Below are positions 8,279 through 31,946 of a stretch of 58,436 nucleotides of DNA, piece after piece. The position numbers were made by a program, and so were the translations under genes. The first letter of the stretch is position 1; each line of letters begins with the position of its first letter. Below the pieces are notes generated by a model. It saw only the letters and a list, made by a program, of their open reading frames with translations. It had not been told where the DNA came from and made no database searches. Origin of the DNA: Oscillospiraceae bacterium (GTDB lineage: Bacteria; Bacillota; Clostridia; Oscillospirales; CAG-272); contig SVRG01000004.1 in the NCBI GenBank assembly GCA_015064965.1, positions 1 through 58,436 of the forward strand, in the 5' to 3' direction.

Positions 8279-8280
8279 TA

Positions 8281-15137: not shown

Positions 15138-18100
15138 ATGAAAAAAATCGGCATATTTCTACTTGTTTTTTTACTTACCGCAATTTTGACGGTAAGTATC
15201 ATGGCTGAAGATGTTACCGTTTTTGTAGACGGTACGCTTACCGAAACGGGCAACGGCACGCTTGCTACGCCTTACAAGGCGATAAGTACGGCGGTAAATG
15301 CCATTAAGAGCACCGGCGGCACGATAGTGCTTACCGGTAAGACCACTGTAAACGTATTTGCCGTGCCTGCACATTCAAAACCGATTACTTATACATCGGT
15401 TTATGACGGTATAGACTATGCAGAGACAAACGGTGCGTGTCTTTCGCTTGGCGGACGTATGGTGCTTGGCGGCGAATCAACGTTTGAAAACATGATTATT
15501 GAATGTGCTACGTCAACCACTTCAAACGTAGGCGGTGTAATCTACGCATACGGCTACAAAACAACCTTTGGTGAGGGCATCACGTGTACAAATCCCAAAG
15601 GTGCTCTCATTTATCCCTCACTTTATGCGGGCGGCTACTCAAATAACGGCTCAAGAAATGCTGTCCTCACTGTAAAAAGCGGAACGTGGCGTGCGATTTT
15701 CGGCGGTAACGGCAACGGCGCATTTACAGGAAACAGTACGGTTAACTTTGAGGGTGGCACAGTAAAACTTTCTCTTGTTGGCGGCAACAATGCGGTTGGT
15801 AACTTTACAGGTAACACAACTCTTAACATAAGCGGCGGTAAGATTGAAAGCAACAACGGCGGCTACGGTATTGTAGGCTCCTCTCTTGGATATTCTGCGG
15901 CACTCACTTTCAAGGGTAATATTGCAATAAATATTTCGGGCAATCCCGTAATTGAAGCCCCTGTTCTCGGCGCTTCGAGAAGCGGTGCACCCGTAACCAC
16001 AAACGGTGATATCACTATTGATATAAGCGGCGGTACGTTTGCAAGTTGCAACGTCTACGGCGGCGGATACGGCAACGTCACCACGGGTGAAAACGGAATC
16101 CTCGTTAAACTCAGCGGCGACACCGTTACGTTTACGGGTACTCTCGGCAGCTACTCGATTTGCGGCGGTGCGCACAGCGGCACCGTTACGGGAGATGTTT
16201 CTGTTATTCTTGATGCTGACACAGCATACCGTGGCTCAATTCTCGGCGGCGGTTACAGCGGCAACGTTACAGGACACTCCTCTGTTATAATGTATAAAGG
16301 TACAGTTCCGGTTACTCTTACGGCAGGTTCACGCACAGGTACTGTAGGAAGTGCATCTGTTGAGATGTACGGCGGCAAAGTCGGATATCATACATCATCA
16401 TCTTATTTTGGCATCACAGGTAATGGCAGAAACGACACAAGCGGCACAGTTACCGGTGAATCGACTATTCTCCTTGACGGCGGCGACGTTGCCGGTGCAG
16501 TAGAACTCAACGCAAGCCAAATCGGAAGCGGAAGTGTAACGATAAAGAGCGGTAAGGCGGGAAGTGTCGAGGATAAAGCGGTAATCGACCTTTCGGGCGG
16601 CAAGTCACTTAGCCTCGGCGGCAACGTTTCGGCATCTTCATTTATAGGCGGCGGAACTCTTGTACTTGGCGCAACAGGTTCTATCACGGCCGACACAATG
16701 AGCGGTACGGTTGAATTTGAGATAGAAGGTGAGCCTGCCGCAAATCAAACCTATATTACGGTTCTTGACAAGGATTCGGATGCGGTTGTAAATTACACTG
16801 CAAAAGATGACGAAGCCCTCGTTCGCGAAGTGGGAGAAACCGTTACATATACTTTAAAGTATGACGGTCGATACGATACCACCCACGTGCGTGTTTACTA
16901 CTACAATCCGCACGGCGAAAACGAAACGCAACCGAACATAGTACTCTATAAGGGAACAACATCGTCCGATGACCGAGTTAAACTCACTCCCGAAAAGGGT
17001 AACGAAAACGGCAAAAACTTTATTGAAGCAGACCTTGCTCCCGGACTTTATTACTACAAGGTTTACTACGGCAACGGAAGCGGCGATTACGAAACACAGT
17101 ATTTCTATATAACTGGTAAGGATGAAAGCCTTACTTATGAAAAGCCTTATGAGCCTTATAAGGAAAACGGTTATATGGAGCAGTACACTGCAGTTGCAAC
17201 CTATCAGATGCTTGAAAAACTGCTCGGTACAAGCGACCTTCCTTATTACGAAAAACTTGATACTCCCGGTATTGCAAAACTCGATGAACCAACTCGTTCT
17301 TACATGACCAACGAAGAACTTTGTGATTATATCGAGGCACTCGACGAAAAGTGCGAATACTTATATGTATTCTATCCGTTTGATGAGTCGCCCGTATTCG
17401 GAAACAGAACTCCTGTAATGGTATTTACAAAGGATGAAATTCCAAACGGTGCAACCCTTGAAGAAGTTGCTGAAATTGTTCGTGGCGGCGGCGTAAGAGA
17501 AATTATGATGATTACCGGCGGCGTACACGGAAACGAGCCTGCCGGTGCAGAGGGCGTACTCAATTATGGCGTGCTTCTTGCAGGTGAGTACGGTGATAAC
17601 GCACTTGACAGTATAGGTGCGATAGTTCTTATGCCCGCATCCTGTCCCGACAATTTGCAAAGATTCAAGCGTTTGCACGCAAACGGTCACAACTACGCAA
17701 GAGATATGCTTTCGCTTTACGAGGTTGAGCCGCAGAATTACGTATCTCTCTACGATTTATTCAAGCCTACCGTGACGTGCGACTGTCATGAGGACAATAA
17801 CTACGTAAATTACGATACACCCGACAACTCAGCAGCAGATCTTCAGGACGTTGCTTTTCAGACCATAGGCTCGCCCAATCAGCCACTCCTTGATCCGTAC
17901 GGCGTTCTTACCGGTGAAAAACCGATGAGCGAAAGCCGTGCATATAAAATGTTGCCGACTCTTATTGAAAAGACTGCACAAATAGGACTTCGCAGCGGCA
18001 TGTATAAGAATTCCTATTTCAGCCCCGCATTTACCTTCTCCTATTCATCTACGAGAGGTTCGTATGCCTTCCTCATTGAAGTAATGCGTATATGGAGCGG

Positions 18101-18908
18101 TAAGGGCAGATATGAGAGAGCGGTTTACGCAATGCAACAGGGTCTCAAGACTCTAACAGACGAGGTTATTGCCACTAACGGCGAAATGGCAAGAGAGGTT
18201 TATGAGTCACGTGAGGCTGCAAAGGTAATTACCTTTGACGAAACAAATATTTTTGCCACAAAGATGTCAAGAAGCGGTAAGAGTGTGATTGTTGACGAAC
18301 TCATATCAGCATATCCCGACGGAACTTATAAAAACTTTGGAACAGAGTCGCACAGTCAGTATGATACAGTTGATTCATACCGTGCACTCCCGACAGCATA
18401 TATTCTCCCCGCAGACCTTGAGAATATAGATTCGGTACTTAATCTTCTCGATTTGCACGGAATTGAATATGAAAAAATGGCAAACGGTTCAAAATTGACA
18501 CTCCGCAAGTATTCTCTCGGCGATACGGTTTCACTCGGAGAAAGCGAAGAGGTTGTGCTTGAAAACGGCGCATACGCAGTCCTCACCGATACTGCGGACG
18601 TTTATCTTATAGCATTCTTGCTTGAGCCCGACAGTTATCCTCAACCTTCAAATCCTGACGACTACCTCTATAGTGACAATAACATCTATGATATGGGTTA
18701 TATTACCGATTCCGATGCATATTACCGTTCCGAAGCAGATTATATGCGTGATGTAATTGCAGGTATGGGTTACGTTGAAGGCGATGTTAACGGTGACGGC
18801 ATATTTAATATGGCAGATGTATTGGCGATGCTCAAAAAGGTAGTTAACGATGAAGATGGCTCGCTTATTGACGTATTGAGATTGCTTAAAACATTAGCAG
18901 AGGAATAA
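15138..18908 (+). CDS. Secreted Gly-rich beta-helix + M14 zinc carboxypeptidase + reduced dockerin
   Basis: Signal peptide; GGxxxG/ISGG repeats; M14 motifs GGVHGNEPAG (HxxE), NYARD, DCHE; C-terminal GDVNGDGIFNMADV with the second Ca loop missing. Confidence 0.82.
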   Translation: MKKIGIFLLVFLLTAILTVSIMAEDVTVFVDGTLTETGNGTLATPYKAISTAVNAIKSTGGTIVLTGKTTVNVFAVPAHSKPITYTSVYDGIDYAETNGACLSLGGRMVLGGESTFENMIIECATSTTSNVGGVIYAYGYKTTFGEGITCTNPKGALIYPSLYAGGYSNNGSRNAVLTVKSGTWRAIFGGNGNGAFTGNSTVNFEGGTVKLSLVGGNNAVGNFTGNTTLNISGGKIESNNGGYGIVGSSLGYSAALTFKGNIAINISGNPVIEAPVLGASRSGAPVTTNGDITIDISGGTFASCNVYGGGYGNVTTGENGILVKLSGDTVTFTGTLGSYSICGGAHSGTVTGDVSVILDADTAYRGSILGGGYSGNVTGHSSVIMYKGTVPVTLTAGSRTGTVGSASVEMYGGKVGYHTSSSYFGITGNGRNDTSGTVTGESTILLDGGDVAGAVELNASQIGSGSVTIKSGKAGSVEDKAVIDLSGGKSLSLGGNVSASSFIGGGTLVLGATGSITADTMSGTVEFEIEGEPAANQTYITVLDKDSDAVVNYTAKDDEALVREVGETVTYTLKYDGRYDTTHVRVYYYNPHGENETQPNIVLYKGTTSSDDRVKLTPEKGNENGKNFIEADLAPGLYYYKVYYGNGSGDYETQYFYITGKDESLTYEKPYEPYKENGYMEQYTAVATYQMLEKLLGTSDLPYYEKLDTPGIAKLDEPTRSYMTNEELCDYIEALDEKCEYLYVFYPFDESPVFGNRTPVMVFTKDEIPNGATLEEVAEIVRGGGVREIMMITGGVHGNEPAGAEGVLNYGVLLAGEYGDNALDSIGAIVLMPASCPDNLQRFKRLHANGHNYARDMLSLYEVEPQNYVSLYDLFKPTVTCDCHEDNNYVNYDTPDNSAADLQDVAFQTIGSPNQPLLDPYGVLTGEKPMSESRAYKMLPTLIEKTAQIGLRSGMYKNSYFSPAFTFSYSSTRGSYAFLIEVMRIWSGKGRYERAVYAMQQGLKTLTDEVIATNGEMAREVYESREAAKVITFDETNIFATKMSRSGKSVIVDELISAYPDGTYKNFGTESHSQYDTVDSYRALPTAYILPADLENIDSVLNLLDLHGIEYEKMANGSKLTLRKYSLGDTVSLGESEEVVLENGAYAVLTDTADVYLIAFLLEPDSYPQPSNPDDYLYSDNNIYDMGYITDSDAYYRSEADYMRDVIAGMGYVEGDVNGDGIFNMADVLAMLKKVVNDEDGSLIDVLRLLKTLAEE

Positions 18909-18909
18909 A

Positions 18910-19962
18910 ATGAACATTAGACTCCACAACCGCAAAATGATAAGAACCGAAAAGTATATAAAGGACTTTGTAGCGGCAGAACGTGCAGGCGACGTCGCAA
19001 TTGCTATCGGCGACAGTGAGGGAGAAGCATACCGCTTCTTCCATTCAAGCCGTGGCGATATTTTAAACGGCAAAACGCTCTGCGACATGATGTCGGTGTC
19101 CAAGGTTCTTGTTACTGCCCCTCTTTTTCATATGGCGATGGATGAAAAACTCATCTCTCCGCATGACACTCTCGGAAAGTTTTTTCCGTATGCTCCAAGC
19201 GACAAAAAGGATATTCCGCTATGGATGCTTTTGTCCCATCAAAGCGGAATGGGAAAAGTTGTTTTCCCCGATTTCTTTGGTCCTGACAGGCGTGAAGAGG
19301 CGATACGTTTTCAACTTTCTACACCGTTTCATTTTGAACCGGGTACGGGTTATCTCTATTCGTGCAGCGGTTTTATCCTACTCGGATTTATTCTTGAAAA
19401 GGTGTATAACAAACCGCTTGACCGACTTTTTGATGACCGCATAGCACGACCTCTCCGAATGAAAAATACTTCCTTTAATCCAAGTGAGGACGAAAACATT
19501 ATAAGATGTACACGCAAGGCGTACGATGGTGCAAATAAATGTTCGGATGACAACAATCACCGCTTGTACGGTGTCAGTGGTAATGCAGGCATCTTCTCAT
19601 GTATCGACGACATGACGCTTTTCGGTCGCTCACTATTGAACCGCCATGTAGGGTTGATAAGTGAAGAAACCTTTTCCGAAAGTATCAAAGACCTTTGTCC
19701 ATACGCCTTTGGAAGAGCACTTGGATACGTATATGTAGATGAGCGCTATGAGCAAGGCAGCGGACTTTATTCAAACGGAACAGTCGGTCACACCGGCTTT
19801 TCCGGCACAGAGTGCTTTGCCGACTTTGAAAAGGATATGTATGTAGTATCTCTGTCAAACACCGCATACTATGCCGCAAAAAACGGCGAAGGTTGCATGA
19901 CAGAGGTTGAAGAATTCCGTAAAGGATTACACAAAGCAATGAAAGAGGATTTGGAATATTAA
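18910..19962 (+). CDS. Serine hydrolase, beta-lactamase-related (class C/esterase VIII fold)
   Basis: SxxK (SVSK), LLSHQSG, F.PGT.YLYS, GHTGFSG. No signal peptide. Confidence 0.88.
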   Translation: MNIRLHNRKMIRTEKYIKDFVAAERAGDVAIAIGDSEGEAYRFFHSSRGDILNGKTLCDMMSVSKVLVTAPLFHMAMDEKLISPHDTLGKFFPYAPSDKKDIPLWMLLSHQSGMGKVVFPDFFGPDRREEAIRFQLSTPFHFEPGTGYLYSCSGFILLGFILEKVYNKPLDRLFDDRIARPLRMKNTSFNPSEDENIIRCTRKAYDGANKCSDDNNHRLYGVSGNAGIFSCIDDMTLFGRSLLNRHVGLISEETFSESIKDLCPYAFGRALGYVYVDERYEQGSGLYSNGTVGHTGFSGTECFADFEKDMYVVSLSNTAYYAAKNGEGCMTEVEEFRKGLHKAMKEDLEY

Positions 19963-19994
19963 ACTGCGCACCGTTTAAAAAACACAGAATAAAC

Positions 19995-20085
19995 AAACGA
20001 CCGTATTACCGGATACAATTTCGGTGATACGGTCGTTTTAATATAACAAGGAAGAGAAGGGCAGAAAGATGATACTTGAAGAATT
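19995..20085 (+). repeat. ~91-bp direct repeat, copy B; its hairpin probably serves as terminator between the convergent genes
   Basis: Matches 4468-4562. The DUF6809-like start (MILEEL) is cut off at the LuxR stop codon. Confidence 0.85.
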
Positions 20086-20088
20086 GCG

Positions 20089-21108
20089 TTACAACCATTT
20101 TGCAATCTCTATGAGCGCTTTGCGTGAGGACACGCCGAGCTTGCTGTAGAGATTTTTATTATGGAATTTGAGCGTATTTTCCTTTATATTCAGCGTAGCC
20201 AGAATTTCCTTGGTGGATTTGCCTTCAAGATAGAGATCATATATTGCTTTTTCGGTTGGGGTCAGCGTTTTCAGCCCTTGTACAAACAACTTCTGTTGCT
20301 CGATAAGCTCTTTTGTGGGCTTGATTTCGGGTGCTTGCGGTTCGGGCATGGGTGTGGCAAACAACTTTTCGCCGTCCTGAATTATCAGATACAGCCCAAG
20401 CAAAAAAATCTCGCTGATGATATATGATACAGAGAGGAATTCAAAATCAATTCTGACAAGCTGCTCAAGCAGCCAGACACCGAGGTTTGCAAATACGGCG
20501 GCTGCGAGAAAAACCGCCTGTATATGTGACGGAACACTCTTTTTTATTGCCGCGTGTAAAATGGCGGCAACCATTGCGGCAAAATATGCAAGCAGAAAGA
20601 CGAGATAGATCACATGCCACGGGCCGTACACTTTTTCAAGTACGGAGACACCGTTTACATTTTGCAAATAAACTTCCTTATAATAGATATCCGAGTATCC
20701 GGGACTTGCCGCAACAAAGAACACAAACAGGCTGATGCAAACGAGCAGATATGGCAGCCACTTGATATATCGCAAGCGACATACTTTTACGATAGTCAAT
20801 AGCATTGCCAAGGGTAAAAAGACCGAGCCGAGGTAGGAAACTCTGTTTGCCATAAGCGCGCCGTCAAGCGTAGTTGCCTTGGCAAGCGAAAGATAGCCGA
20901 TGTTGACTATCACTGCAGACGTAAAAAGCACCATCAGCCAAAACTCTTTTTTGCGAATAAGTGTAAGGTATCCAACCAGCATCAAAATGGAAAGAAGCGT
21001 TGTGACAACATAAACCGCTGACATATCCATTGCTTTGCCGCCGACGGCGGAGCATCCTGCAAAAAAGCAAAGAGGAAGTAACGCGGCACTACCGAAAATC
21101 TTCTTCAT
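20089..21108 (-). CDS. Membrane-integral 7TM sensor fused to a LuxR-type HTH regulator
   Basis: About 7 TM segments resembling HisKA_7TM; C-terminal LTPTEKAIYDLYLEGKSTKEI..IKENTLKFHNKNLYSKLGVSSR. Start moved to MKKIFG after AAGGAG. Confidence 0.88.
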   Translation of the reverse strand: MKKIFGSAALLPLCFFAGCSAVGGKAMDMSAVYVVTTLLSILMLVGYLTLIRKKEFWLMVLFTSAVIVNIGYLSLAKATTLDGALMANRVSYLGSVFLPLAMLLTIVKVCRLRYIKWLPYLLVCISLFVFFVAASPGYSDIYYKEVYLQNVNGVSVLEKVYGPWHVIYLVFLLAYFAAMVAAILHAAIKKSVPSHIQAVFLAAAVFANLGVWLLEQLVRIDFEFLSVSYIISEIFLLGLYLIIQDGEKLFATPMPEPQAPEIKPTKELIEQQKLFVQGLKTLTPTEKAIYDLYLEGKSTKEILATLNIKENTLKFHNKNLYSKLGVSSRKALIEIAKWL

Positions 21109-21149
21109 AAATCGCTCTCCTTGAAACAATTTACCTGTAAAACCCAAAA

Positions 21150-21220
21150 ACCACACCGTTTCCCACACTTTTTGCGCTAAAAACGGCGGCATCCCACACT
21201 TTTATTTTGCCTTTGTGTGG
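21150..21220. promoter_or_regulatory. Candidate LuxR operator repeats
   Basis: TCCCACACTTTT at 21161 and 21192 (31-bp spacing), CCACAC at 21151 and inverted GTGTGG at 21215. Confidence 0.5.
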
Positions 21221-21422
21221 CGACTTTGGGCTATTTTGTAATTTAATATTAAATTAAAGGGTATAGAAGGATGGTATATAACCTTGCCTTGTAAAAAGGG
21301 GTACCCCATTTACAAATTCATGTAAATGTCTCTGTGGCGCGCCAACGAAACAGAGACCGCCCCTAATAATTATAATTATATATTAACATAAATATATAGT
21401 TAAGTCAACGGAGGTATCCAAA

Positions 21423-24400
21423 ATGAAAAAACTTGGCAGAGTTTTGATTATGTGCCTGCTTGTCTTTTTGCTTGCCTTTACGGTGGTTGCAGAAGACGGC
21501 GACAACTGTATGTACTGCGGTGCATATCGCTTTGGCGATTGGCTTTGCGAATGCGGTCTTTGCAGCATTGAGGCAGAGCCCGCGGATTGCTGGGCAGCAA
21601 CGCACTGCTGGGAATGCGGTGCTTGCTTTAACACACGTTCCAAATTCTGCACCGAATGCCATCTTTGCGACGATTGCTACGTCGGCGAGGCATACCATTG
21701 CATGGGCTGTGAGGAGTGCTATGCCGGCGACCAGGATGCGCTATGCAGCATATGCTGGTTCTGTGAGAGCTGCGCCGGCGCATTATGTGATGATTGCGGC
21801 CGTTGCGAGAGCTGTCAGGAGTTTGAAGGCGGTGTGCATTGCCCCGAGTGCGGCTACTGCTATAACGCATACGGCGCATGCGAGGAAGATGGCGCCGAGC
21901 ACTGCAAGGAATGCTGCCTGCCTTGCGAAAAATGCGAGCGATGCGTTTTCGATGACGGTCTTGAACTCTGTGATGAATGTAATGCCTGCGAGGAATGCTG
22001 TGAGGCAGAAGCACAGAGTGAGGGCTGTGAGTGCGGCGAATACTGCGTGGAAGGCTCCGATTGGTATGACCATATCTGCCTTGACTGCGGAACTCCGTTT
22101 TGCGCAATAGAGCAATGCGATATCTGCGAGGTATGCCTTGACTGTTGCGAAGGAAACTCCGATTGCAGCGAGGGGCTTTGCGTAATGGACGATGAATATG
22201 ACGAGCATTTCTGCCTTGACTGCGGCGCGTGTTTCCATGATGTAGACGTATGCGAGATATGCTATGGTAACGGCGAGCTTCGCTGCGAGGACTGCTGCCG
22301 TATGTATGCCGAGGATGAAGGCTGCGATTGCGGTGACACCTGCGTGAGCGACCCTGACTTTGATATGCATGTTCTCACTGAGCATTCAAATGGCGGCGAA
22401 CACAGTGCAAAGCCGCAGAACACATGGTCATTTGACGAGACCTATCACTATGTGAGCTGCCGCTACTGCGACAGTGCGGCACACCTCACTGCAAAGGCAA
22501 AGCACACGCTTAACAAGTACGATATCTGTACAGTTTGCGGCTACAACACCAACACAAAGATACTTGTTCTTTCTCAACCGCAGAGCAGAGTTGTAAGCGT
22601 AAGCGATAATGAAGCAGATGCCGGCGACCCCTATAACATCGAGGACAACAAGGTTTCGTTTTCCGTTTTTGCCAAAGGAACAAGCAAACTCAGCTACCAG
22701 TGGTACGAAAGATACGGAAACGGAAAGTGGACGGCACTTGAGGACAATACATCCTCGTGGAACAATGGCAAAAAGTTCAACACCGTTCACGGTGCAAAGA
22801 CCGAAAAACTGACGATTTCTGTTCCGACGACGGTTTGCTATGGTGAGAACTCTTACCGTTGCGAGATTAAGGATGAGGACGGAAATACCGTATATTCTGC
22901 CGAAGCGTCTATTTTTTCCAAGCACATTTATAAAGAGTGTACCTACTATAAGGGCGCGCTGATTGGCATTATCCATCAGCCTAATAAGAATAACAACATC
23001 GGTGTGTATGAAAGCAAAGTACATGAAATAATCTGTCTTGGTGACGGCTGCGAGGCGGTAAAGGAATTGCCCCACAACTTCGGCAAGGCAGAGGGCGAGG
23101 TTACGGATAGCGTTGACGGCAGCGTATGGACAAAGTTCACCTGCCGTGACTGCGGATTTACTACACATATAAAGAATCACGACCACTATTTCTTCGATAA
23201 AGAAACAGGCGAGTGCGTGGTGGATTACACCTATAAAAACGGCACACAGCACCGTCTTAAGTGCCTCTATGACGGCTGTACCAAGACTACCTTGGAGAGC
23301 CACACATGGCTTGCATGGGGTAATCAGGGAACACCTCATACCGCATCAAACGGCATTGGCGCGCCGTACAAGGAATGCAGTCTTTGCTCCTATACCACAA
23401 CAGAGAAGCCGATGCGATTTGACAGCGTAAAAGAGGAGAACATTGCAACTGATTGGACAAAGTCAAATGACCTTGTATATGTACAGTACGGTCACGCATC
23501 AAGCGATATTTATGTTATGGGCGACAGTATTGAGATCACCTTTGCCCCCACTGTCAACGATAAAAACGATTACATCAAGATCAACAATCCGAGATGCCTT
23601 GCTTTCCGCGTATACTATAGCGGAAACGGCGTGAGTGACCTTGATGTAACGGGCTACGCAACCTCGGTAAAGCTTGAGGGCGAGCCAAAGTGGACTTTTA
23701 TTATCAAGAGCTTTAAGGAATACACAGGCGGCGGTATCTTCACATTTATCCCTGCAATTGATAAAGCCGAGTGTAAGCATCAAAGCGGCACAAGAATCTT
23801 CGGCGCATACAAGCCTGTCTGCGTAAAGGACGGCTACACCGGTGACCTTTGCTGCTGCGATTGCGGTTATGTTGTAAAATACGGTGAAACTATCGAGGGC
23901 GGCAAAGAGCATACAGGCACTCTCACACTTATTAAGAGCACTGTAGTAAAAGCAACATGCGAACAGCGCGGATACGAAGGCTCATACAAATGCTCGCATT
24001 GTGGCATGGTGGTTATGGGTGATACCACACCGAGACAGCATACGGGCAAGATAACCGTTAAAAATGCAAAATCGGCTACCTGTTTTGACTTTGGTTACAC
24101 AGGCGACACCTACTGCTCATGCGGCGACCTTGTAAAAGAGGGCAAACTCATAGCACCTACACATACCAAACTTCAGACACTTAACTATAAAGAGGCAAAC
24201 TGCCAGCATGACGGCTATACAGGCGATATAAAGTGTGCAGTGTGCGGAATTTATGTAAAATACGGCTACACGCAAAAGGGCACAGAGCATGCATTCTCCG
24301 TTTGGAAAGCACAGGACGGAGTAAATCACAGAAGCTACTGTACGGTAAGCGGATGTAACGAATTTAAAGTTGAGCCGCATACGGATGCTGACCGTGACCT

Positions 24401-25424
24401 TGTTTGCGATATATGCTCTTACTCTTTAGGCGAGGACGGAGAGTATATTTCGCTCATCTCTCTCAGTGTTACCGCTCCCGAAATCGGTGCAAAGGCTGAT
24501 TATACCAAATTTGATACCAAGCGTTTCTACAGTGATAATCTCGGTGACCGCTCAGGAAAGTATACGGACGGTATAAGCTGGATAAATGTTGAAACAGGCA
24601 AGAAAGTCAGCGTATTTGAAGAGGGCGGCGTTTATAAGCTTACCGTTTGCTTCAGAAGTAAAGAAAACTATTCCTTTACCGAAAATCTCACTGCCACCGT
24701 CAACGGTTCTGTAGCAGTTGCAGAGTATCTTGGTGCTGATTTTGCAAGCATTGAGTACACATTCCAAAAGCTTGGCCACGCTCATGATTACATCCTGATG
24801 CGTAACGAAAGCAGCCACCACTATGAGTGTCTTGTTTGCGGAGATGCAAAGGATGCAGGCAACCATGTGTTTGATGCAAACGGACGTTGCAAGAGCTGTG
24901 GCTACAACAAGAGCAACAATAACCCGTTTACCGACGTTAAGGCAAGCGATTACTTCTTTGATGCGGTGATGTGGGCAAAGGATACAGGCCTTACCGTAGG
25001 TACAACGGCGACTACCTTCTCGCCAAATGAAACATGTACAAGAGCGCAGGGAATAACATTCCTTTGGCGTGCGGCAGGCAAACCCGAACCCAAGTATTCT
25101 TCACCGTTTGTGGATGTAAAAGCCTTTACCGACGTAAAAGAGAGCGACTATTTTTACAAAGCAGTGTGCTGGGGCGTTGAACAGGGAATTATCGTGGGCA
25201 CATCCGCAACAACCTTTACGCCTCACCAGACCTGCTCAAGTGCGCACATTATGACAATGCTTTTCCGCGCAATGAAGATCGGCACTAACGGCTGGTACGA
25301 GGAAGCAAGGGATTGGGCAAAGAAAGAGGGACTCCTCAACGGAACAAAATTTGTTGTTTCTCCCGATGAGCCTTGTCCGAGAGCGGGAATTGCGTATTTC
25401 CTCTATATGTTTTACGAGAAATAA
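21423..25424 (+). CDS. SLH-anchored surface protein with an extremely Cys-rich N-terminal domain, Ig-like domain and Cys/His repeats
   Basis: Signal peptide; about 63 Cys in aa 29-307 (manual count); Ig-like SQPQS..SYQWY..YRCEI; ATC..GYTGD..C..CG repeats; C-terminal SLH (PFTDVKASDYFFDAV, FSPNETCTRAQ). Confidence 0.88.
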   Translation: MKKLGRVLIMCLLVFLLAFTVVAEDGDNCMYCGAYRFGDWLCECGLCSIEAEPADCWAATHCWECGACFNTRSKFCTECHLCDDCYVGEAYHCMGCEECYAGDQDALCSICWFCESCAGALCDDCGRCESCQEFEGGVHCPECGYCYNAYGACEEDGAEHCKECCLPCEKCERCVFDDGLELCDECNACEECCEAEAQSEGCECGEYCVEGSDWYDHICLDCGTPFCAIEQCDICEVCLDCCEGNSDCSEGLCVMDDEYDEHFCLDCGACFHDVDVCEICYGNGELRCEDCCRMYAEDEGCDCGDTCVSDPDFDMHVLTEHSNGGEHSAKPQNTWSFDETYHYVSCRYCDSAAHLTAKAKHTLNKYDICTVCGYNTNTKILVLSQPQSRVVSVSDNEADAGDPYNIEDNKVSFSVFAKGTSKLSYQWYERYGNGKWTALEDNTSSWNNGKKFNTVHGAKTEKLTISVPTTVCYGENSYRCEIKDEDGNTVYSAEASIFSKHIYKECTYYKGALIGIIHQPNKNNNIGVYESKVHEIICLGDGCEAVKELPHNFGKAEGEVTDSVDGSVWTKFTCRDCGFTTHIKNHDHYFFDKETGECVVDYTYKNGTQHRLKCLYDGCTKTTLESHTWLAWGNQGTPHTASNGIGAPYKECSLCSYTTTEKPMRFDSVKEENIATDWTKSNDLVYVQYGHASSDIYVMGDSIEITFAPTVNDKNDYIKINNPRCLAFRVYYSGNGVSDLDVTGYATSVKLEGEPKWTFIIKSFKEYTGGGIFTFIPAIDKAECKHQSGTRIFGAYKPVCVKDGYTGDLCCCDCGYVVKYGETIEGGKEHTGTLTLIKSTVVKATCEQRGYEGSYKCSHCGMVVMGDTTPRQHTGKITVKNAKSATCFDFGYTGDTYCSCGDLVKEGKLIAPTHTKLQTLNYKEANCQHDGYTGDIKCAVCGIYVKYGYTQKGTEHAFSVWKAQDGVNHRSYCTVSGCNEFKVEPHTDADRDLVCDICSYSLGEDGEYISLISLSVTAPEIGAKADYTKFDTKRFYSDNLGDRSGKYTDGISWINVETGKKVSVFEEGGVYKLTVCFRSKENYSFTENLTATVNGSVAVAEYLGADFASIEYTFQKLGHAHDYILMRNESSHHYECLVCGDAKDAGNHVFDANGRCKSCGYNKSNNNPFTDVKASDYFFDAVMWAKDTGLTVGTTATTFSPNETCTRAQGITFLWRAAGKPEPKYSSPFVDVKAFTDVKESDYFYKAVCWGVEQGIIVGTSATTFTPHQTCSSAHIMTMLFRAMKIGTNGWYEEARDWAKKEGLLNGTKFVVSPDEPCPRAGIAYFLYMFYEK

Positions 25425-25433
25425 GGAGCGACT

Positions 25434-28304
25434 ATGAAAAGATTAATTTCGATATTACTTGCGGCAGTTATGCTTGCAGTGACTGTTTTTGCAGACGATA
25501 CGCCTTGTCAGCATGAATTTTTGGCAATGAGAAATATGGTAAGCCACTATGAGGAATGCCAGAAGTGCTACACAGTTCAGAATGTGGGCAACCATGTAAT
25601 CAAAGACGGCAAATGCACAGTTTGCGGCTATGAGGGCGCAATGGCTGAAGATGTTCGCGGCGAGGGAGAGCACTCTCACAAGCTGATGAACGGCGCAGAC
25701 GCGGACTATCACTTTGAAGAATGTCAGGTCTGCTTTGAGCGCTTCAATGTAAAGGACCACACCTTTAAAGACGATAAATGCACAGTTTGCGGCTATGATA
25801 AATTTGCAAATCCCTTTATCGACGTAAGCGAGAGCGCATGGTTTTATAATGACGTGATCCGCGCATACTATGACGGACTTATCAACGGCAAAACCAAAAT
25901 GACCTTTGCGCCAGACCTCAATATTACATACGTTGAGGCAATCAAGCTTGCGGCTTGTATGTACCAGAAATATACCGAGGGCAAGGTAACTTTAACCGTT
26001 GGTAACCCCTGGTATAAGCCGTATCTCGATTATTGCATTGAAAACGGAATTCTCAAGGAAGACCACGGCTACGATTTGAACGCTCCTGCAACAAGACAGG
26101 GATATATGCGCATTTTTGCATATTCACTACCTGCAGAGGCACTTGAGGAGATAAACTACGTTGCCGAGGATGCAATTCCGGACGTGAAAAAAGACCCCGC
26201 TATCTACAAGCTTTACCGCGCAGGTATCGTTGGCGGCGTTGATGCAGCGCGCAACTGCAATCCCGAAGCAAACATCAAGAGAAGTGAAGTTGCGGCAGTT
26301 CTCACAAGAATGATGAACAAGAGCGCAAGAATTGAGTTCACTCTCGGCGAAAAGCCCGCACAAACCGCGCCGCTTGAATTTAAGGGCGCCACTTCATATC
26401 TGGAATTCGGAAAATATATATTCCTTGCGTCTGTTTCGGGTGGAGAAGCTCCTTATACATATACATGGTACTACAGCGACGGTGAAAAAGGCACAAAGCT
26501 TGCAAATGACAGCTTTGTAACCTTTACCGATGACGGCGCGGGCGGTGTAAGCGCAGTTTTCCTTTTCACCAAGGACAATCCGTATCTCGCAAAGCAGATA
26601 AAGCTTGCGGTTACAGATGCAAAGGGTGAAAAGATTGATTCCGGATATACCGATATTCCGGCATATTTTGATGTCGGGGAACCCGCAGATGAGCAGCCGG
26701 CAGAGACTTATTCAAAGCTTACAATTACCGAACAACCTGAGTATATTGCATCGGCAAAAGAGGGCGATTATGTAACATATTCGGTATTTGCCAAGGGCGG
26801 CAAGCAGCCATACAAATTTGAGTGGCTCTATTATACAGGCTACAAGGACCGGACCGATACTTTCAAAAATGACGGATATGCAATACTGAGCGGTGACGTT
26901 ATTACGCTTAAGTTTGATTTGGATAGCCCATATCTTGAAAAGAAGTTTTTCTGCAGGGTTACCGATGAAAACGGCGAAAGCGTAAATACAAACACCGTTA
27001 AAATGCCTGAAGCACCCTTTACAATGGAGCTTGAGGACATTGTAAAAAATTCGCTCGGAACTATAGTTGTCGGCACGGTTAAGACCGGCAAGATAACCGC
27101 CGGCGAACATCTTGTATTTTCTTTTGACGATAAATACACATACGGCAGCGGCAAGGTTGAAGCAATTGAAATGTTCCAAAAGCAGCTTGACGTGGCAACC
27201 GCAGGGGACAGAGTGGGACTTTTGTTTAAGGAAATCGGCACTATCAATACCCGTGCCGCAGTTCTTGATTACGACACGCAAAATCTTATCGGCGACAAAA
27301 AGAATATTGCTATCAAAGAGTCTTTAAGTGTAGGTGTAAGTTATACCCCAAGAGGAAATATCGGTGACTTTACAAAAATGACTGTATATGCTATGGGCGG
27401 CATGGAGCCCTATACATATGTTTGGCAGGCGCTTAAAGACGGCAAGCAAGCTTATAATATTGCCGCTATTGCAAAATCAGAAGAGTGGGCAAACGGAGTT
27501 GACAAAGATACGCTTAATATAAAGCTTACCGAAGCGCAGTTTGCATTCGGTATGTCATTCCGCTGTATGGTAACCGATGCGGCAGGCAATGTTGCGTATT
27601 CCAAGGCATATGTTCCCACAGTTCATAGCCTTGTTATTGCAAACCATCCCGAGAGCGTTTATGCAAACTACGGCGATAAAGTTGAGTTTAAGGTAAAAGC
27701 ATACGGTGCAAACGACAGCGCTCTTACCTATCAGTGGCGCTATATCTATGACGGCGCAAAGACCTTTAAGGATATTTTGCCCACTGACACATGGGCAAGC
27801 GGCTGTAATACCGATACACTTACAATTCAGGTGGAAAAGGCTGAGCTTACAAACCACGTATATTACCATTGCGTCGTTACCGATGCTGAGGGCAACAAGG
27901 CTATAACAGCGGCGGCGACAATTTCTCCCGAAAAGCCTTTTGTATCAAAGCAACCCGGTGTTGTGGCGGCAAAGCCTGACACCTACATCAAGTTCAGCGT
28001 GGAGGCGGACGGCAGATACAAGCCGCTTTCCTATAAGTGGTATTATTTTGTGGACGGTATGGGCTTCTTCTATCCCGTATCCAAGGACCATGAGTGGGCA
28101 GAGGGCGAGACCACAAACACTCTTACCGTAGGCGTTGACAGAAAGCATTTTGACGGCAGCTTTAAGTGCTATTGCCTTATAACAGATGCAAACGGCAACG
28201 AGGTCAAGAGTCTTGAGGGCAGTGTAACGCTCAGCGATGATGCAAACGTAAATCTCGAAACAGGTCACGCGCCTAAAGATGATATTCTTGTGCTTATCTG
28301 GTAG
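25434..28304 (+). CDS. SLH surface protein with tandem Ig-like domains and an EF-Tu domain II-like insert
   Basis: Signal peptide; two His/Cys ribbons; SLH repeats (PFIDV, FAPDLNITYVEA, NPEANIKRSEVA); about five GG..PY.Y.W..C.VTD Ig-like units; EF-Tu-like segment at 27015-27240. Confidence 0.85.
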   Translation: MKRLISILLAAVMLAVTVFADDTPCQHEFLAMRNMVSHYEECQKCYTVQNVGNHVIKDGKCTVCGYEGAMAEDVRGEGEHSHKLMNGADADYHFEECQVCFERFNVKDHTFKDDKCTVCGYDKFANPFIDVSESAWFYNDVIRAYYDGLINGKTKMTFAPDLNITYVEAIKLAACMYQKYTEGKVTLTVGNPWYKPYLDYCIENGILKEDHGYDLNAPATRQGYMRIFAYSLPAEALEEINYVAEDAIPDVKKDPAIYKLYRAGIVGGVDAARNCNPEANIKRSEVAAVLTRMMNKSARIEFTLGEKPAQTAPLEFKGATSYLEFGKYIFLASVSGGEAPYTYTWYYSDGEKGTKLANDSFVTFTDDGAGGVSAVFLFTKDNPYLAKQIKLAVTDAKGEKIDSGYTDIPAYFDVGEPADEQPAETYSKLTITEQPEYIASAKEGDYVTYSVFAKGGKQPYKFEWLYYTGYKDRTDTFKNDGYAILSGDVITLKFDLDSPYLEKKFFCRVTDENGESVNTNTVKMPEAPFTMELEDIVKNSLGTIVVGTVKTGKITAGEHLVFSFDDKYTYGSGKVEAIEMFQKQLDVATAGDRVGLLFKEIGTINTRAAVLDYDTQNLIGDKKNIAIKESLSVGVSYTPRGNIGDFTKMTVYAMGGMEPYTYVWQALKDGKQAYNIAAIAKSEEWANGVDKDTLNIKLTEAQFAFGMSFRCMVTDAAGNVAYSKAYVPTVHSLVIANHPESVYANYGDKVEFKVKAYGANDSALTYQWRYIYDGAKTFKDILPTDTWASGCNTDTLTIQVEKAELTNHVYYHCVVTDAEGNKAITAAATISPEKPFVSKQPGVVAAKPDTYIKFSVEADGRYKPLSYKWYYFVDGMGFFYPVSKDHEWAEGETTNTLTVGVDRKHFDGSFKCYCLITDANGNEVKSLEGSVTLSDDANVNLETGHAPKDDILVLIW

Positions 28305-28313
28305 GAGGTAAAT

Positions 28314-28772
28314 ATGAATTACATTGGCAAATGGGTGTTTCATTCCATCGGTGAGATGACCGAGGACGGCGAGCTTCGCTATATGAATGCTGAAGAATAC
28401 ATTGCATCTCCCATGCCTTATATTGATGAAAATGATGCAGAGGAGGTAGCAGATGAACTTGCCGAGCGCAAAAAGACGGTTGGCATGGAGCTCCGCGTGC
28501 TTTCTGACGGAACTCTCTACATGCTGATGCCGATTCCCGAGGGCGTAAGTAAGGAAGAGGTCGATGAGGCGGTTGCCGCAGGCGAGATAACTCTGTATGA
28601 CGGCATGATGTGCGACTCCCCGAAAAAATGGGAGGAGCGCGACGGCACACTCTGGTTTGACTCCGGCATTCACGGTGAAGTGTTTGGCGAAGCTGCCGAT
28701 CCATGGGTAAAGGCAACTGACGATGACGGATTTTTCAACTTTATGAGCTTTCGCTTTGTGAAAGGAGAGTAA
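28314..28772 (+). CDS. Hypothetical acidic protein
   Basis: AGGAGG RBS, operon-coupled spacing, YIGKW N-terminus. No function recognised. Confidence 0.75.
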   Translation: MNYIGKWVFHSIGEMTEDGELRYMNAEEYIASPMPYIDENDAEEVADELAERKKTVGMELRVLSDGTLYMLMPIPEGVSKEEVDEAVAAGEITLYDGMMCDSPKKWEERDGTLWFDSGIHGEVFGEAADPWVKATDDDGFFNFMSFRFVKGE

Positions 28773-28775
28773 AAT

Positions 28776-29375
28776 ATGAGCATTTTCGATTCCATAAAAA
28801 GAGCAATAGGCGCATCTCTTAAAAAAGAAGCGGCTAAAGTCGTAAATGAAGCGGTTTCCAATATCGGCAAGGGCAGAAATCACACCGAGAGCTTTACTTT
28901 TTCTGCTCTGCCCACAAGCGTAGCGGAGATTCAGGCACTTGAGGAGGGCTCGCTTGACAGCGCATTCAAGACCGCAGCACTGACAATTGCGGTGCTTTGC
29001 CACTATGAAAAGGATATAGACGCAACCCTTGCAATGCTTGATTTTCTCAAGGGCCCCGAAAGCGTAAGCCCCTATGAAAAGCAGTTCATCGGCGAGCGTC
29101 TGCGCGACAAGGGCTACAAGATGTATGCCTTTTTCAAGGGGGCAACACCGGAGAATAACTATACCCCCACTACACCGTACACCGTTGAGATAATAGAAAA
29201 TCCATACTCGTTTGACAACGAAAACTGGGCGACTTTGTGGGTAAAGAGCGGCGGCTCCGACAATCCGAGTTCTTTAAAATTCCGCAAGAAACCGTCAACA
29301 GGACAGTGGTTTTTAAACGATATTCAGTGCCTTTCCGACATCCGTTTGCCTGTGGCAAAGGATGATTGGGCATGA
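28776..29375 (+). CDS. Conserved hypothetical protein (DUF6935-like)
   Basis: FTFSALPTS..FKTAALTI..FFKGATPENNY.P..SGGSDNP..GQWFL..SDIR.P resembles DUF6935 as recalled. Confidence 0.7.
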   Translation: MSIFDSIKRAIGASLKKEAAKVVNEAVSNIGKGRNHTESFTFSALPTSVAEIQALEEGSLDSAFKTAALTIAVLCHYEKDIDATLAMLDFLKGPESVSPYEKQFIGERLRDKGYKMYAFFKGATPENNYTPTTPYTVEIIENPYSFDNENWATLWVKSGGSDNPSSLKFRKKPSTGQWFLNDIQCLSDIRLPVAKDDWA

Positions 29376-29392
29376 GGCGTGAGGCGATATTG

Positions 29393-29920
29393 ATGAGCAT
29401 ATTTTCAATATTGCTTTCGCTGTTTGAATGCGGTAAAAAGGCGCATATAAACACCTTTTTCCCCTCTCCGGTGCCGCTGCCTGCGGGGGAAACTCTCACC
29501 GGCCTTCACATGACAAGACAGGGCATGAGAAGCGGACTTTGCTATGTCATGTCTGTCGAGGGTGAGGACATATTTTTAAAGATGACAAACTGTCATCCGC
29601 TAGAAAAGGAGTACCGCTTTAATGCAAAGGAAATACTTAGCAAAAACGAAAAATGCGCTATCAAATCCACAAATGACATACAGGTACTGCGCGATATAGA
29701 AGAGGCGCTTGTTGATTGCGGCACGGTGGGGTGGGACGGATTTAACGAGACAATCATCATGAAAAACGTAACCGATACAGGCGAAAGATACGAAATTTAT
29801 CTGCGTTTTTCGGGTGGAAGTACCGTCAGCGTATATGGCATTGACATATGCCCCGACCGCTTTAACGAGGTGTTTAATCGCATTGCCGCTATTTTTCGCA
29901 GAACTGTCAAGTGGGAGTAG
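29393..29920 (+). CDS. Hypothetical protein (start 29372 or 29393)
   Basis: Operon-coupled ORF; C-terminal half resembles 30352-30852. Confidence 0.65.
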   Translation: MSIFSILLSLFECGKKAHINTFFPSPVPLPAGETLTGLHMTRQGMRSGLCYVMSVEGEDIFLKMTNCHPLEKEYRFNAKEILSKNEKCAIKSTNDIQVLRDIEEALVDCGTVGWDGFNETIIMKNVTDTGERYEIYLRFSGGSTVSVYGIDICPDRFNEVFNRIAAIFRRTVKWE

Positions 29921-29926
29921 TTTATA

Positions 29927-30355
29927 ATGAGTATTTTTAAAACGGATAGCTTCTGTATTACAGTTCCGCAGGGGTGGAAAGCTTTCAAGGTGAATGAAAG
30001 AGTAATACATATATGCAAGGGCGGAGAAAAGGATAGCGATATTCTCTCAAAACCGTATATGCAACTCAATTTTTCCGGCGAAGCATACATGATCCCGCCT
30101 TCGCGGTCAGGATACTATGACATCACCGATATTCCGCCGATCACGCTTGGCAACTACACCTGGCAGGGGTTTGAGTGCGAGAGCATGGGCTTTCGCGTGG
30201 CAATGATCTTTACAGGAGAGGGCAAGCGGCAGTTTCAGGTATCTGCCAATCTTGAAACTCCGATTGGCAAGATAGAAATGACGGATGCGGATGTGCAATC
30301 AATTCTTGCTTCTGTCACGCTGCTTGGTTCCGGCGAAGAAAGAGAGTCTATATGA
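29927..30355 (+). CDS. Hypothetical protein
   Basis: GGGAG RBS; F.ITVPQGW start and ILASVTL end are reminiscent of PsbP/DcrB-like folds (weak). Confidence 0.7.
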   Translation: MSIFKTDSFCITVPQGWKAFKVNERVIHICKGGEKDSDILSKPYMQLNFSGEAYMIPPSRSGYYDITDIPPITLGNYTWQGFECESMGFRVAMIFTGEGKRQFQVSANLETPIGKIEMTDADVQSILASVTLLGSGEERESI

Positions 30356-30852
30356 TAAGGTTGTTAAAGTCGCTTTTCAGAAAAAGACGCGCCGACACCG
30401 AGGACGGCGGTGTAAGAAAACGGATTTGGTATGATGCACCGAAAAAGATTGTTTCCGAGCAGATAATAAGCTTCAAATGTGAGTTTTCCACGGTGACAAT
30501 TGTTGATGACATCCCGATAGAACACGGCGTATACACGCTTTTTGCAAGACTTAAAGACGGAGCAGTCCGCGGAGCATATGAGCTGCGGACTCGCGACGGA
30601 AGCGGTGAACAATTTGACTTTCGCCAAAGCCATCGCTTTTTGAGAAGCGTGCAAAACGTTGTCAGCACATATGACATTGCAAAGCATAACGGCATGGAAT
30701 ACCGTGTCAGCGGACTTCCCGATATGTACGGCGCAAATATCAGCATTGTATATGCTTCGGGCGAACGTATTTATGCAAGCGACAATCAAAACAATTTTTT
30801 ATCAGTTGAGGCAATGGCGGAGCTTGTAAAACTGTTTTTGCAACAGAAATGA
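30352..30852 (+). CDS. Hypothetical protein
   Basis: ATGA overlap with the upstream stop; followed by a terminator. Confidence 0.7.
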   Translation: MIRLLKSLFRKRRADTEDGGVRKRIWYDAPKKIVSEQIISFKCEFSTVTIVDDIPIEHGVYTLFARLKDGAVRGAYELRTRDGSGEQFDFRQSHRFLRSVQNVVSTYDIAKHNGMEYRVSGLPDMYGANISIVYASGERIYASDNQNNFLSVEAMAELVKLFLQQK

Positions 30853-30856
30853 GCAT

Positions 30857-30887
30857 AAAAAGAGCAGGTCATATGGCCTGCTTTTTC
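30857..30887 (+). terminator. Intrinsic terminator ending the SLH operon
   Basis: AAAAGAGCAGGTCA-TA-TGGCCTGCTTTTTC. Confidence 0.8.
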
Positions 30888-30927
30888 TTAGAGCGGCATG
30901 GCAAAATTCAGCCGAAGATGGTTTTTG

Positions 30928-30957
30928 TTGACTTTCACCGCCTATCCGTGATATAAT
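30928..30957 (+). promoter_or_regulatory. Sigma-A promoter
   Basis: TTGACT-18-TATAAT with a TG extension, 38 nt before the GT2 ATG. Confidence 0.7.
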
Positions 30958-30995
30958 TATATGTAATATTCGGTGCAAAAATAAGGAGAGGTAAT

Positions 30996-31946
30996 ATGGA
31001 TAAGATAGCAGTTCTCATTCCTTGCTACAATGAAGCGAAAACTATCGAAAAAGTTGTAAAAGACTTTAAAGAGGTTCTTCCTGAAGCGGTAATCTATGTG
31101 TACGATAACAATTCGACTGACGGAACCGCTGAAATTGCACAAAAAGCCGGGGCTGTTGTGCGCCACGAATACCGCCAGGGAAAGGGAAACGTTGTGCGCA
31201 GAATGTTTCGTGAGATCAATGCACATTGTTATATCATGGCGGACGGCGACGACACATATCCTGCAGAGTATGCGCCCGAAATGGCATCACTTGTGCTTGA
31301 TAAAAAGGTGGATATGGTTGTCGGTGACAGACTTACATCCACATATTTTACAGAAAACAAGCGCCCCTTTCACAATTTTGGAAACTCATTTGTAAAGAAA
31401 ACTATAAACCTTCTTTTCAAGAGCGATATCAGGGATATTATGACAGGCTACAGAGCGTTCAGCTATCATTTTGTCAAGACATTCCCCGTGATTTCAAAGG
31501 GATTTGAAATTGAAACCGAAATGAGTATTTTTGCAATAGACAAAAATATGTATGTTGAAAACGTGGTTATTCAATACCGCGACAGAGTGGACGGCAGCGA
31601 ATCCAAATTGAATACATATGTTGACGGATTCAAGGTGATAAAGACAATTTTCAGACTCTTCCGCGACTACAAGCCGCTTGCATTTTTCGGTACGATTTTT
31701 GCAATACTTTCGCTGCTTGCCGTCGGTTTCTTTGTACCGATTCTGGTTCAGTATCTGCGCTCCGGCCTTGTGCCAAACTTCCCAACGCTGATCGTTTGCG
31801 GATTTGTAGAAGTGGCAGCGCTTTTGTCCCTTTGCGCGGGTATGATCCTCGAAAGCATCAAACTGAAGAACAGACAGGACTTTGAACTGCAGCTGATACA
31901 GGCGGAAAACACCGTCAGAGCGTTGGAAAATGAAGAAAATCATTGA
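30996..31946 (+). CDS. GT2 polyprenyl-phosphate glycosyltransferase (GtrB/DPM-like)
   Basis: IPCYNEA, YDNNSTDGT, DGD.TY, DIMTGYRAFS, GFEIETE; two C-terminal TM segments. Confidence 0.92.
   Translation: MDKIAVLIPCYNEAKTIEKVVKDFKEVLPEAVIYVYDNNSTDGTAEIAQKAGAVVRHEYRQGKGNVVRRMFREINAHCYIMADGDDTYPAEYAPEMASLVLDKKVDMVVGDRLTSTYFTENKRPFHNFGNSFVKKTINLLFKSDIRDIMTGYRAFSYHFVKTFPVISKGFEIETEMSIFAIDKNMYVENVVIQYRDRVDGSESKLNTYVDGFKVIKTIFRLFRDYKPLAFFGTIFAILSLLAVGFFVPILVQYLRSGLVPNFPTLIVCGFVEVAALLSLCAGMILESIKLKNRQDFELQLIQAENTVRALENEENH

Follow-up and report, generated by a model that had tools for sequence, protein, structure and literature searches.

The 58,436-nt stretch of contig SVRG01000004.1 from an Oscillospiraceae bacterium (GCA_015064965.1; hereafter the window) carries a gene for a membrane-bound LuxR-type regulator, regA, which diverges from a seven-gene operon for two SLH surface proteins and five small proteins. 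We consider this locus, with a probability of about 0.55, to be one copy of a conserved and undescribed regulon of gut Oscillospirales-type Clostridia that would serve a cue-induced surface or envelope programme. Sequence comparison makes the recurrent elements of this regulon apparent: a one-component membrane regulator, an operator and promoter of fixed layout, a leader of ~110 nt at about position +1, and a recurrent cargo. The regulatory part (membrane LuxR sensor, operator, promoter and structured leader) has good comparative support, and for the biological role we infer inducible surface display or envelope remodelling.

Regulator, operator and promoter

The regulatory features of the locus are as follows.

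20089–21108, minus strand: regA, one-component membrane regulator with a lipobox-like signal, seven transmembrane (TM) segments and a C-terminal GerE/LuxR helix-turn-helix (HTH)
21151–21224, unstranded: operator region with direct CCACAC/TCCCACAC repeats at 21151, 21161 and 21192 and an inverted repeat abutting the −35 position
21244–21249, plus strand: predicted −10 box TAATAT, from a by-eye alignment of upstream regions with the TATAAT/TAAAAT of relatives
21260–21368, plus strand: conserved structured 5′ leader element (EL), 120.8 bits with covariance model CM R1

The long open reading frame (ORF) of regA spans 20089–21192 on the minus strand and exceeds the Pfam cut-offs for both HisKA_7TM (56.2 bits against 28.6) and GerE (PF00196; 51.1 bits against 23.5, residues 309–364 of the long ORF), which identifies it as a LuxR/GerE protein; a hydropathy scan gave the lipobox-like signal segment and the seven TM segments. 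NCBIfam matches cover the HTH part only and lie far under their cut-offs. Unlike the NarL/FixJ response regulators, regA has no Response_reg match in Pfam, and its N-terminus is HisKA_7TM. A paralogue with 67% protein identity is found on contig C79 of the same genome. The true start is probably the ATG at 21108 (product MKKIF...), with AAGGAGAG just upstream, and the repeated boxes that the initial annotation had noticed between regulator and operon would therefore be intergenic rather than coding.

These boxes proved to be conserved operator-like sites that covary with the HTH. The 12-mer TCCCACACTTTT has exactly two copies in the 2.06-Mb, 148-contig assembly, at 21161 and 21192, both in the regA–SLH1 spacer, which also contains further half-sites (CCACAC at 21151 and an inverted GTGTGG at 21215–21220) and the inverted repeat CCCACAC (21193–21199)-N15-GTGTGGCGAC (21215–21224). 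The same layout, overlapping the −35 region, is common to 20+ related loci and conserved across genera: in the relatives, the 3′ half of the inverted repeat stands ~17 nt upstream of a TATAAT-like box, with two to three more direct repeats beyond it. Over 270 nt, the spacer shares 83% identity with that of the C79 paralogue, compared with the 67% protein identity of the two regulators. From this layout, the transcript would start a few bases before 21260.

Four types of recognition helix pair with four types of half-site across the loci:

ENTLKF/YHNKN with CCCACAC...GTGTGG
ESTLKYHNHN with CCCCACC...GGGTGGGG
ESTVRF/YHNK/RN with CCTATC...GGGG
ENTMKYHNKN with CTACCC...GGGTAG

This covariation fits direct recognition of the half-sites, but related genomes inherit both traits together. 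Binding of the LuxR HTH to the inverted-repeat operator near the promoter is thus a prediction of comparative kind.

A conserved structured leader

EL, a conserved structured leader that is absent from the initial annotation, lies between the predicted −10 box and the first gene. It comprises AAGGAGGGUAUA, the closing helix (GGGGU/GCCCC) and two hairpins, the first variable and the second with GCGCGCCAACGAA as its loop; the core shared across loci reads GAGGGTATA..CTTGCC..AAGGGGTACCCC, variable hairpin, GCGCGCCAA-loop hairpin, CCGCCCC (spacers read by eye). A blastn search with the spacer returned matches limited to the C79 paralogue and a same-genus locus; the distant copies were found by eye and then by a covariance model, CM R1, built on six copies. 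In total, 34 distinct copies were identified in one order of gut Clostridia. CM R1 matches 16/151 genomes of the family (14/97 genera) and, at the level of the order, 5/151 genomes: G000 itself, two others of its family (f1), and two of the 143 genomes outside f1, which belong to two other families. An exact three-block pattern, which detects canonical copies only, occurs in 16 loci among 185,579 species, all of them metagenome-assembled genomes (MAGs) labelled Clostridia, Eubacteriales, Oscillospiraceae or Candidatus Flemingiibacterium; in other collections it was found in one metagenome contig.

Several observations point to a structured RNA. In all 34 copies EL has a fixed orientation, 3′ of a TATAAT-like −10 box and 5′ of the first gene. 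Over these copies, in an alignment fitted to the model, 96.3% of pair cells are standard, compared with 80.9% after shuffling and ~50% with slid partners; 16 of 25 pairs show compensatory change on both sides, and none of 500 shuffles reaches any of these measures. The 5′ GGGU could form a pseudoknot or alternative helix with the ACCC that follows the P1 strand: pairing reaches 98.8%, and one pair is GC in 18 sequences and AU in two. The single-sequence fold of the whole 5′ untranslated region (UTR) is more stable than shuffles (z = −4.1). No terminator was found downstream of EL, and a scan of 19900–31100 against Rfam 15 (4227 families) gave no match at E ≤ 1 over it. A leader peptide was rejected as an explanation because the spacing from the candidate TTG to the conserved blocks is not a multiple of three across copies.

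Two loci also carry partial second copies of EL (L028:10664–10842 and L033:8757–8935), in which the GCGCGCCAA hairpin and a TGCCTTTTCC block are found between the boxes and the start of the regulator. They have the same orientation as the full copy and are hence antisense to the 5′ UTR of the regulator.

The operon and its proteins

Downstream of EL, seven plus-strand genes follow each other with gaps of 9, 9, 3, −4, 6 and −4 nt. The ORFs, the gaps and the single hairpin at the end bear out the tightly coupled set of seven genes, divergent from the 7TM-LuxR gene, that had been described initially.

21423–25424, plus strand: SLH1, with signal peptide, Cys-rich N-terminal ~330 aa, long ectodomain with His/Cys motifs and two C-terminal SLH domains
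25434–28304, plus strand: SLH2, with signal peptide, His/Cys motifs, one SLH domain, Ig-like repeats and an EF-Tu-domain-2-like barrel at residues ~520–603
28314–28772, plus strand: p4, small, no predicted TM segment and taken as cytoplasmic, possibly a lipocalin-like barrel
28776–29375, plus strand: p5 (DUF6935), N-terminal helix (MSIFD..K) and a putative NTF2-like domain
29372–29920, plus strand: p6, of a lipoprotein family, with LFEC here (29414–29431) where the alignment gives an LFGC lipobox in relatives
29927–30355, plus strand: p7, small, no predicted TM segment and taken as cytoplasmic, no named family
30352–30852, plus strand: p8, a conserved domain with a VSGLPDMYG motif
30863–30890, plus strand: terminator-like hairpin (30863–30882) followed by the T tract TTTTTCTT, at the operon end

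The next genes have a separate strong promoter-like site at 30928–30957 (11/12 matches).

Both large proteins combine an N-terminal hydrophobic segment with matches to SLH (PF00395) and are thus of the SLH-anchored kind. SLH1 (1333 aa; 64 bits over two SLH stretches) is indeed Cys-rich, with 109 Cys, 61 of them in the first 300 residues, and 32 CxxC motifs; it belongs to a family that we call big900 (E = 9e-249 with the local family hidden Markov model, HMM). SLH2 (956 aa) has one SLH stretch (48.6 bits), and its Ig repeats resemble a Hoc-like PHROG family (E = 3e-20). The claim that SLH2 contains an EF-Tu domain holds for a resemblance to domain 2, while the rest of EF-Tu is absent: ~80 residues align (~520–603, window 26990–27245), with 28.7 bits in Pfam (under the cut-off of 30.3), E = 2.2e-6 to EF-Tu in the PDB and E = 1.4e-8 in NCBIfam (34 bits against a cut-off of 449), and SLH2 is not a member of the EF-Tu family. 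The same stretch is 36% identical over 83 aa to a match on contig C91, which is probably the EF-Tu gene of this genome.

Among the small proteins, p5 is a full member of DUF6935 (PF22043; 175 bits against 27, profile positions 2–157 of 158) and not just similar to that family, as it had been described initially. The other four, p4, p6, p7 and p8, matched nothing in Pfam or NCBIfam. The five small proteins do not form one class: p6 is a lipoprotein, whose start overlaps the p5 stop (ATGA), and p8 carries an N-terminal TM helix or lipobox in relatives, an anchor missing in the genus of the window (30352–30400). For p4, p5 and p7, no TM segment was predicted and no signal peptide was evident. Homologues of p7 occur in L022, L073, L082 and L104, and Atlas gave unnamed clusters and a DUF3805 lead; the Atlas neighbours of p8 are all unnamed. 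Comparison of p4, p5, p6, p7 and p8 with each other by hhalign indicated that they are unrelated (all probabilities <1%). The non-canonical lipobox of p6 and the missing anchor of p8 would mean either that the accessory genes are decaying or that localisation has changed in the genus of the window.

Structural searches, which had been suggested as a check, yielded leads in VIA and nothing in Foldseek. The model of p5 (pLDDT 86.7) gave a VIA list of mostly NTF2-like structures with a top Z of 7.5 (3gwr, rmsd 3.5, 106 aligned), and nothing in the PDB by Foldseek at E ≤ 0.001. The best VIA matches for p4 (pLDDT 90.9) are lipocalin-like (Z ≤ 5.5), giving weak support to such a fold. PDB sequence and profile searches with SLH1, p8, p6 and DUF6935 returned nothing below E = 0.3, and a complex prediction for DUF6935 with p4 scored 0.01, which weighs neither way.

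Recurrence in related genomes

The gene set recurs in other genomes (G003, L082 and L073 among them), so the possibility that its genes do not co-occur elsewhere—the outcome named beforehand as refuting—does not apply. DUF6935 was found in 47/201 sampled genomes of the same GTDB family and in 35/400 sampled across the class. The same-genus genome G003 has the SLH1-SLH2-p4..p8 cassette at 61–87% identity; the gene order of the window is also found in L082, with cut versions in L083 and L095. Genome G132 (L073) has all five small genes in the run p8, DUF6935, p6, SPFH, DUF4428, p4, p7, zinc ribbon (ZnR), TPM, placed after a large secreted SLH1-family protein. The neighbourhoods of 20 family-level DUF6935 copies were surveyed; those in other genera show 7TM-LuxR, SLH or Cys-rich proteins and p4- and p8-like genes, as well as Band_7_1 SPFH, TPM and DUF4428/zinc-ribbon proteins. 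The system is not self-contained, contrary to the initial annotation: the window holds a reduced variant of a larger family whose fuller versions add an SPFH/Zn-ribbon/TPM trio as well as DUF4428 and double-zinc-ribbon (DZR) genes. It does appear uncharacterised, in that the literature searched made no mention of DUF6935 or of HisKA_7TM together with LuxR, no paper having both of the latter.

EL adjoins a LuxR-HTH regulator in 31/34 copies. Fourteen of these regulators are of the 7TM-LuxR (regA) type, and 17 are of a second type, which pairs an SBP_bac_8 solute-binding protein (SBP), a lipoprotein, with a ~550-aa membrane protein carrying a C-terminal GerE HTH (regB). Of the remaining three copies, two are at contig ends and one (L070, on G098:C50) has no regulator within 19.9 kb. 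The cargo 3′ of EL was mapped with family HMMs; the DUF4428 profile was built from non-SPFH members, since the zinc ribbon is common to SPFH proteins. As many contigs end early, the following counts are floors:

SLH1-type (big900/Cys-rich): at least 21/34 loci
DUF6935: at least 14/34 loci
DZR: at least 11/34 loci
p8: at least 9/34 loci
p4: at least 8/34 loci
p6: at least 6/34 loci
SPFH: at least 5/34 loci
p7: at least 4/34 loci

Additionally, p4 occurs in DUF6935 loci with no detected EL (L024, L032, L101, L104, L105). Members of big900 have a signal peptide and a large ectodomain, with an SLH end in the 7TM-LuxR loci and a TM helix with a Lys tail in the SBP-type loci.

The boxes and EL of L070 (7892–11922) precede SPFH-ZnR-TPM; as the vicinity holds no regulator, control in trans is implied. 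Another contig of that genome (L069) carries a 7TM-LuxR gene with a separate EL, which suggests that one regulator controls both operons. The genome of the window holds a second copy of the module at C79:5027–8233 (L044): the 67%-identical 7TM-LuxR, a spacer with boxes and EL, and an SLH1-family gene that faces the regulator paralogue and is cut by the contig end. Between DUF6935 and SPFH, L028, L033 and L036 carry a family of 483–486 aa with no Pfam match (f483).

Genomic surroundings

The genes preceding regA in the window encode a LysR protein, a 1256-aa protein and a beta-lactamase-like protein, and in G003 the locus orthologous to L044 lies directly upstream of the same three genes. The 1256-aa protein is secreted, has no Pfam match and is translationally coupled to the beta-lactamase-family protein (92–96% identity in G003). 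The upstream genes at 6533–12663 and 15138–19962 comprise this pair and genes for secreted proteins that bear dockerins along with LamG and metallophosphatase domains. After the operon, 30996–56898 is a long surface-polysaccharide cluster with GT2, GtrA, DUF6020, Wzz, a tyrosine-kinase-like ATPase, CpsB, LytR-CpsA-Psr and a sugar transferase, together with a 1782-aa protein with NAGPA and choline-binding repeats (47576–52924) and a tyrosine-phosphatase-family protein with a His-rich N-terminus (55546–56898).

Proposed mechanism

We propose that the sensor responds to an extracellular or membrane cue; its C-terminal LuxR HTH would bind the CCCACAC direct and inverted repeats overlapping −35 and activate the divergent operon, probably along with the regulator's own gene. 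The leader RNA may add a second control after initiation, through ligand or protein binding, stabilisation of the 5′ end or masking of the ribosome-binding site. The operon would then display two wall-anchored SLH proteins, one Cys-rich and one with Ig-like repeats, and supply accessory envelope proteins: p6 as a lipoprotein and p8 with a domain that is extracytoplasmic in relatives, with p4, p5 and p7 taken as cytoplasmic. In the fuller relatives the operon would also provide a SamGHI-like membrane scaffold of SPFH, Zn-ribbon and TPM proteins. Because this scaffold is encoded in the same operon of the relatives, the accessory proteins most likely act at the membrane, in export, anchoring or upkeep of the giant surface protein.

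A further possibility, which we hold to be rather unlikely, is that the leader belongs to a new class of ligand- or protein-sensing RNAs and forms an AND-type switch with the LuxR sensor for an unrecognised envelope-spanning machine. That machine would consist of p4, DUF6935, p6, p7 and p8 (plus the SamGHI-like scaffold in the fuller versions) and, in fibre-associated gut Clostridia, would be responsible for the export, anchoring or maintenance of giant surface proteins rich in Cys/His.

Several points weigh against a conserved, cue-induced surface regulon. Among the sequencing runs searched, no RNA run contained the stretch, and the transcript start, the RNA nature of EL and the induction of the operon are what we infer. 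The EL covariation comes from an alignment fitted to the model, a procedure biased towards the structure. Every genome concerned is a MAG, and sampling is not independent among related genomes. Nor is the combination constant: L032 has boxes and cargo with no EL, L094 has SLH1-SLH2 with no small gene detected in the ~2 kb after, and 10/18 class-level DUF6935 loci have none of the other families within ~10 kb, so DUF6935 is not tied to this system only. The SamGHI-like genes of the window's own genome are unlinked to the operon (SPFH on C145, ZnR and TPM on C40) and have no boxes upstream. The accessory set may be partly decaying in this genus, given the p6 lipobox and the p8 anchor, and the fold matches are weak (Z = 7.5 for p5, Z = 5.5 for p4).

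The hosts are uncultured or little-studied herbivore gut Clostridia. A cue-induced surface regulon of this kind would offer a directly testable circuit of membrane sensor, operator and structured leader, with naturally matched helix and operator variants. EL is a candidate new cis-regulatory RNA whose strong covariation and narrow, defined regulon make a search for its ligand or partner feasible. DUF6935 and four unnamed protein families gain a genomic setting, and the locus is also connected with the SPFH/SamGHI membrane scaffold.

Alternative explanations

The closest rival reading takes the locus for a Psp/SamGHI-type regulon of envelope stress or membrane maintenance, in which the sensor would detect damage to membrane or wall, the small proteins would be adaptors of the SPFH scaffold and the surface proteins would reinforce the wall, serving neither display nor adhesion. 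DUF6935, p4, p6, p7 and p8 share operons with Band_7_1 SPFH, the C-terminally anchored Zn-ribbon protein and TPM in L073, L091, L032 and L024; DUF6935 adjoins TPM or Band_7_1 in many loci; and SamGHI is reported to act in a membrane-stress response (PMC13713150). We nevertheless regard this explanation as unlikely. Pfam scans of the neighbourhoods gave no PspA family, and no PspA-like gene was seen in the loci (no search with a PspA profile was made); the SBP-coupled sensors suggest a solute cue rather than damage; and the unlinked, box-free SamGHI-like genes of the window's genome count against this explanation as well.

Improbable, in our view, is that EL is a feature of the DNA, such as a set of nested palindromes to which the regulator or another protein would bind. 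EL does contain the palindromes GGGGTACCCC and GGCGCGCC, it accompanies a DNA-binding regulator, and its partial copies in L028 and L033 lie on the regulator side of the spacer. The operator is already explained by the separate CCCAC repeats, however, and the position of EL between the −10 box and the first gene is invariant, with fixed orientation in 34/34 copies. Its helices keep their pairing through changes from G-C to G-U and through full compensatory changes, with hairpin length and sequence free.

A role in zinc, metal or redox handling, with the Cys-rich ectodomain and the zinc-ribbon proteins binding or buffering metal at the surface, is quite improbable. The Cys and CxxC content of SLH1 (109 and 32) and the DZR, DUF4428, ZnR361 and SPFH C-terminal ribbons encoded by relatives would suit it; against it, the loci showed neither a metal transporter nor a metal-sensing regulator, the sensors belong to the LuxR or sugar-type SBP kind, and many big900 relatives are Cys-poor (10–40 Cys).

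Finally, it is very improbable that the locus is a polymorphic-toxin/immunity array or an anti-phage island with large effectors and small immunity genes: several small genes unrelated to each other come after a large secreted protein, and some immunity proteins are NTF2- or lipocalin-like (Tai3 and BtaiB are among the lower VIA entries), but the large proteins end in an SLH or TM anchor with no recognisable toxin domain, the synteny of the small genes is kept across genera, two small proteins are extracytoplasmic, the exact EL pattern has 0 matches in viral contigs, PHROGs match the Ig-like and HTH parts only, and PADLOC 2.0 found no system match among 15 proteins, with two marginal hits in the HTH region (E = 0.003–0.004). 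The toxin-immunity, defence and metal-handling readings thus have little support, and the initial suggestions of adhesion, metal handling or defence are guesses.

Comparison with known systems

The nearest published counterpart of the scaffold is the pspA-samGHI (ydjFGHI) operon of Bacillus subtilis, for which PMC13713150 and PMC11237479 describe the SamI, SamG and SamH architecture, and PMC13713150 a role in the membrane-stress response. Set beside that description, the fuller relatives encode a SamI-like Band_7_1 SPFH protein that is cytosolic, lacks a TM helix and carries a zinc ribbon at its C-terminus, a SamG-like protein (ZnR361) with an N-terminal ribbon and one C-terminal TM helix, and a SamH-like TPM protein with a signal peptide and a TM helix. 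The likeness is one of architecture. The adjacent SPFH/Zn-ribbon/TPM trio is found in L073, L091, L033, L028, L070 and L032, whereas the operon in the window has none of its members. Control also differs, with LuxR-type membrane sensors and a leader here and sigma-W in Bacillus, and big900, DUF6935, p4, p6, p7, p8, DUF4428 and DZR are not in the Bacillus operon.

With LuxR/GerE one-component regulators the system shares the C-terminal GerE HTH, and the operator may be likened to those of class II activators, in which inverted repeats overlap −35. In 17 loci a dedicated solute-binding lipoprotein accompanies the membrane sensor, much as the solute-binding protein CuaD is reported to pair with its kinase in sugar sensing by CuaD/CuaSR of Ruminiclostridium cellulolyticum (PMC10384115). 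Unlike in CuaSR, the HTH is fused to HisKA_7TM or belongs to a single-protein membrane sensor, with no kinase/response-regulator pair, and no receiver or autoinducer domain is found.

EL resembles cis-regulatory leader RNAs (riboswitches, protein-binding leaders, STAB-SD) in its predicted position at the 5′ end of the mRNA and in its form, a junction of several helices where the bases of loop and junction are invariant and the stems vary and covary. Stabilisers of the STAB-SD type have a Shine-Dalgarno-like sequence near the 5′ end, to which the AAGGAGG near the 5′ end of EL may be likened. The surface proteins share a signal peptide and SLH domains with other SLH wall proteins of Clostridia, and wall-polysaccharide genes lie just downstream in the window; the Cys-rich N-terminus of SLH1, the His/Cys motifs throughout and the EF-Tu-domain-2-like barrel of SLH2 are unusual. 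The parts of the regulon—LuxR HTH, SLH proteins, SPFH scaffold and leader RNA—are thus of known kinds, while their combination is undescribed, as are the RNA motif and the four unnamed protein families.

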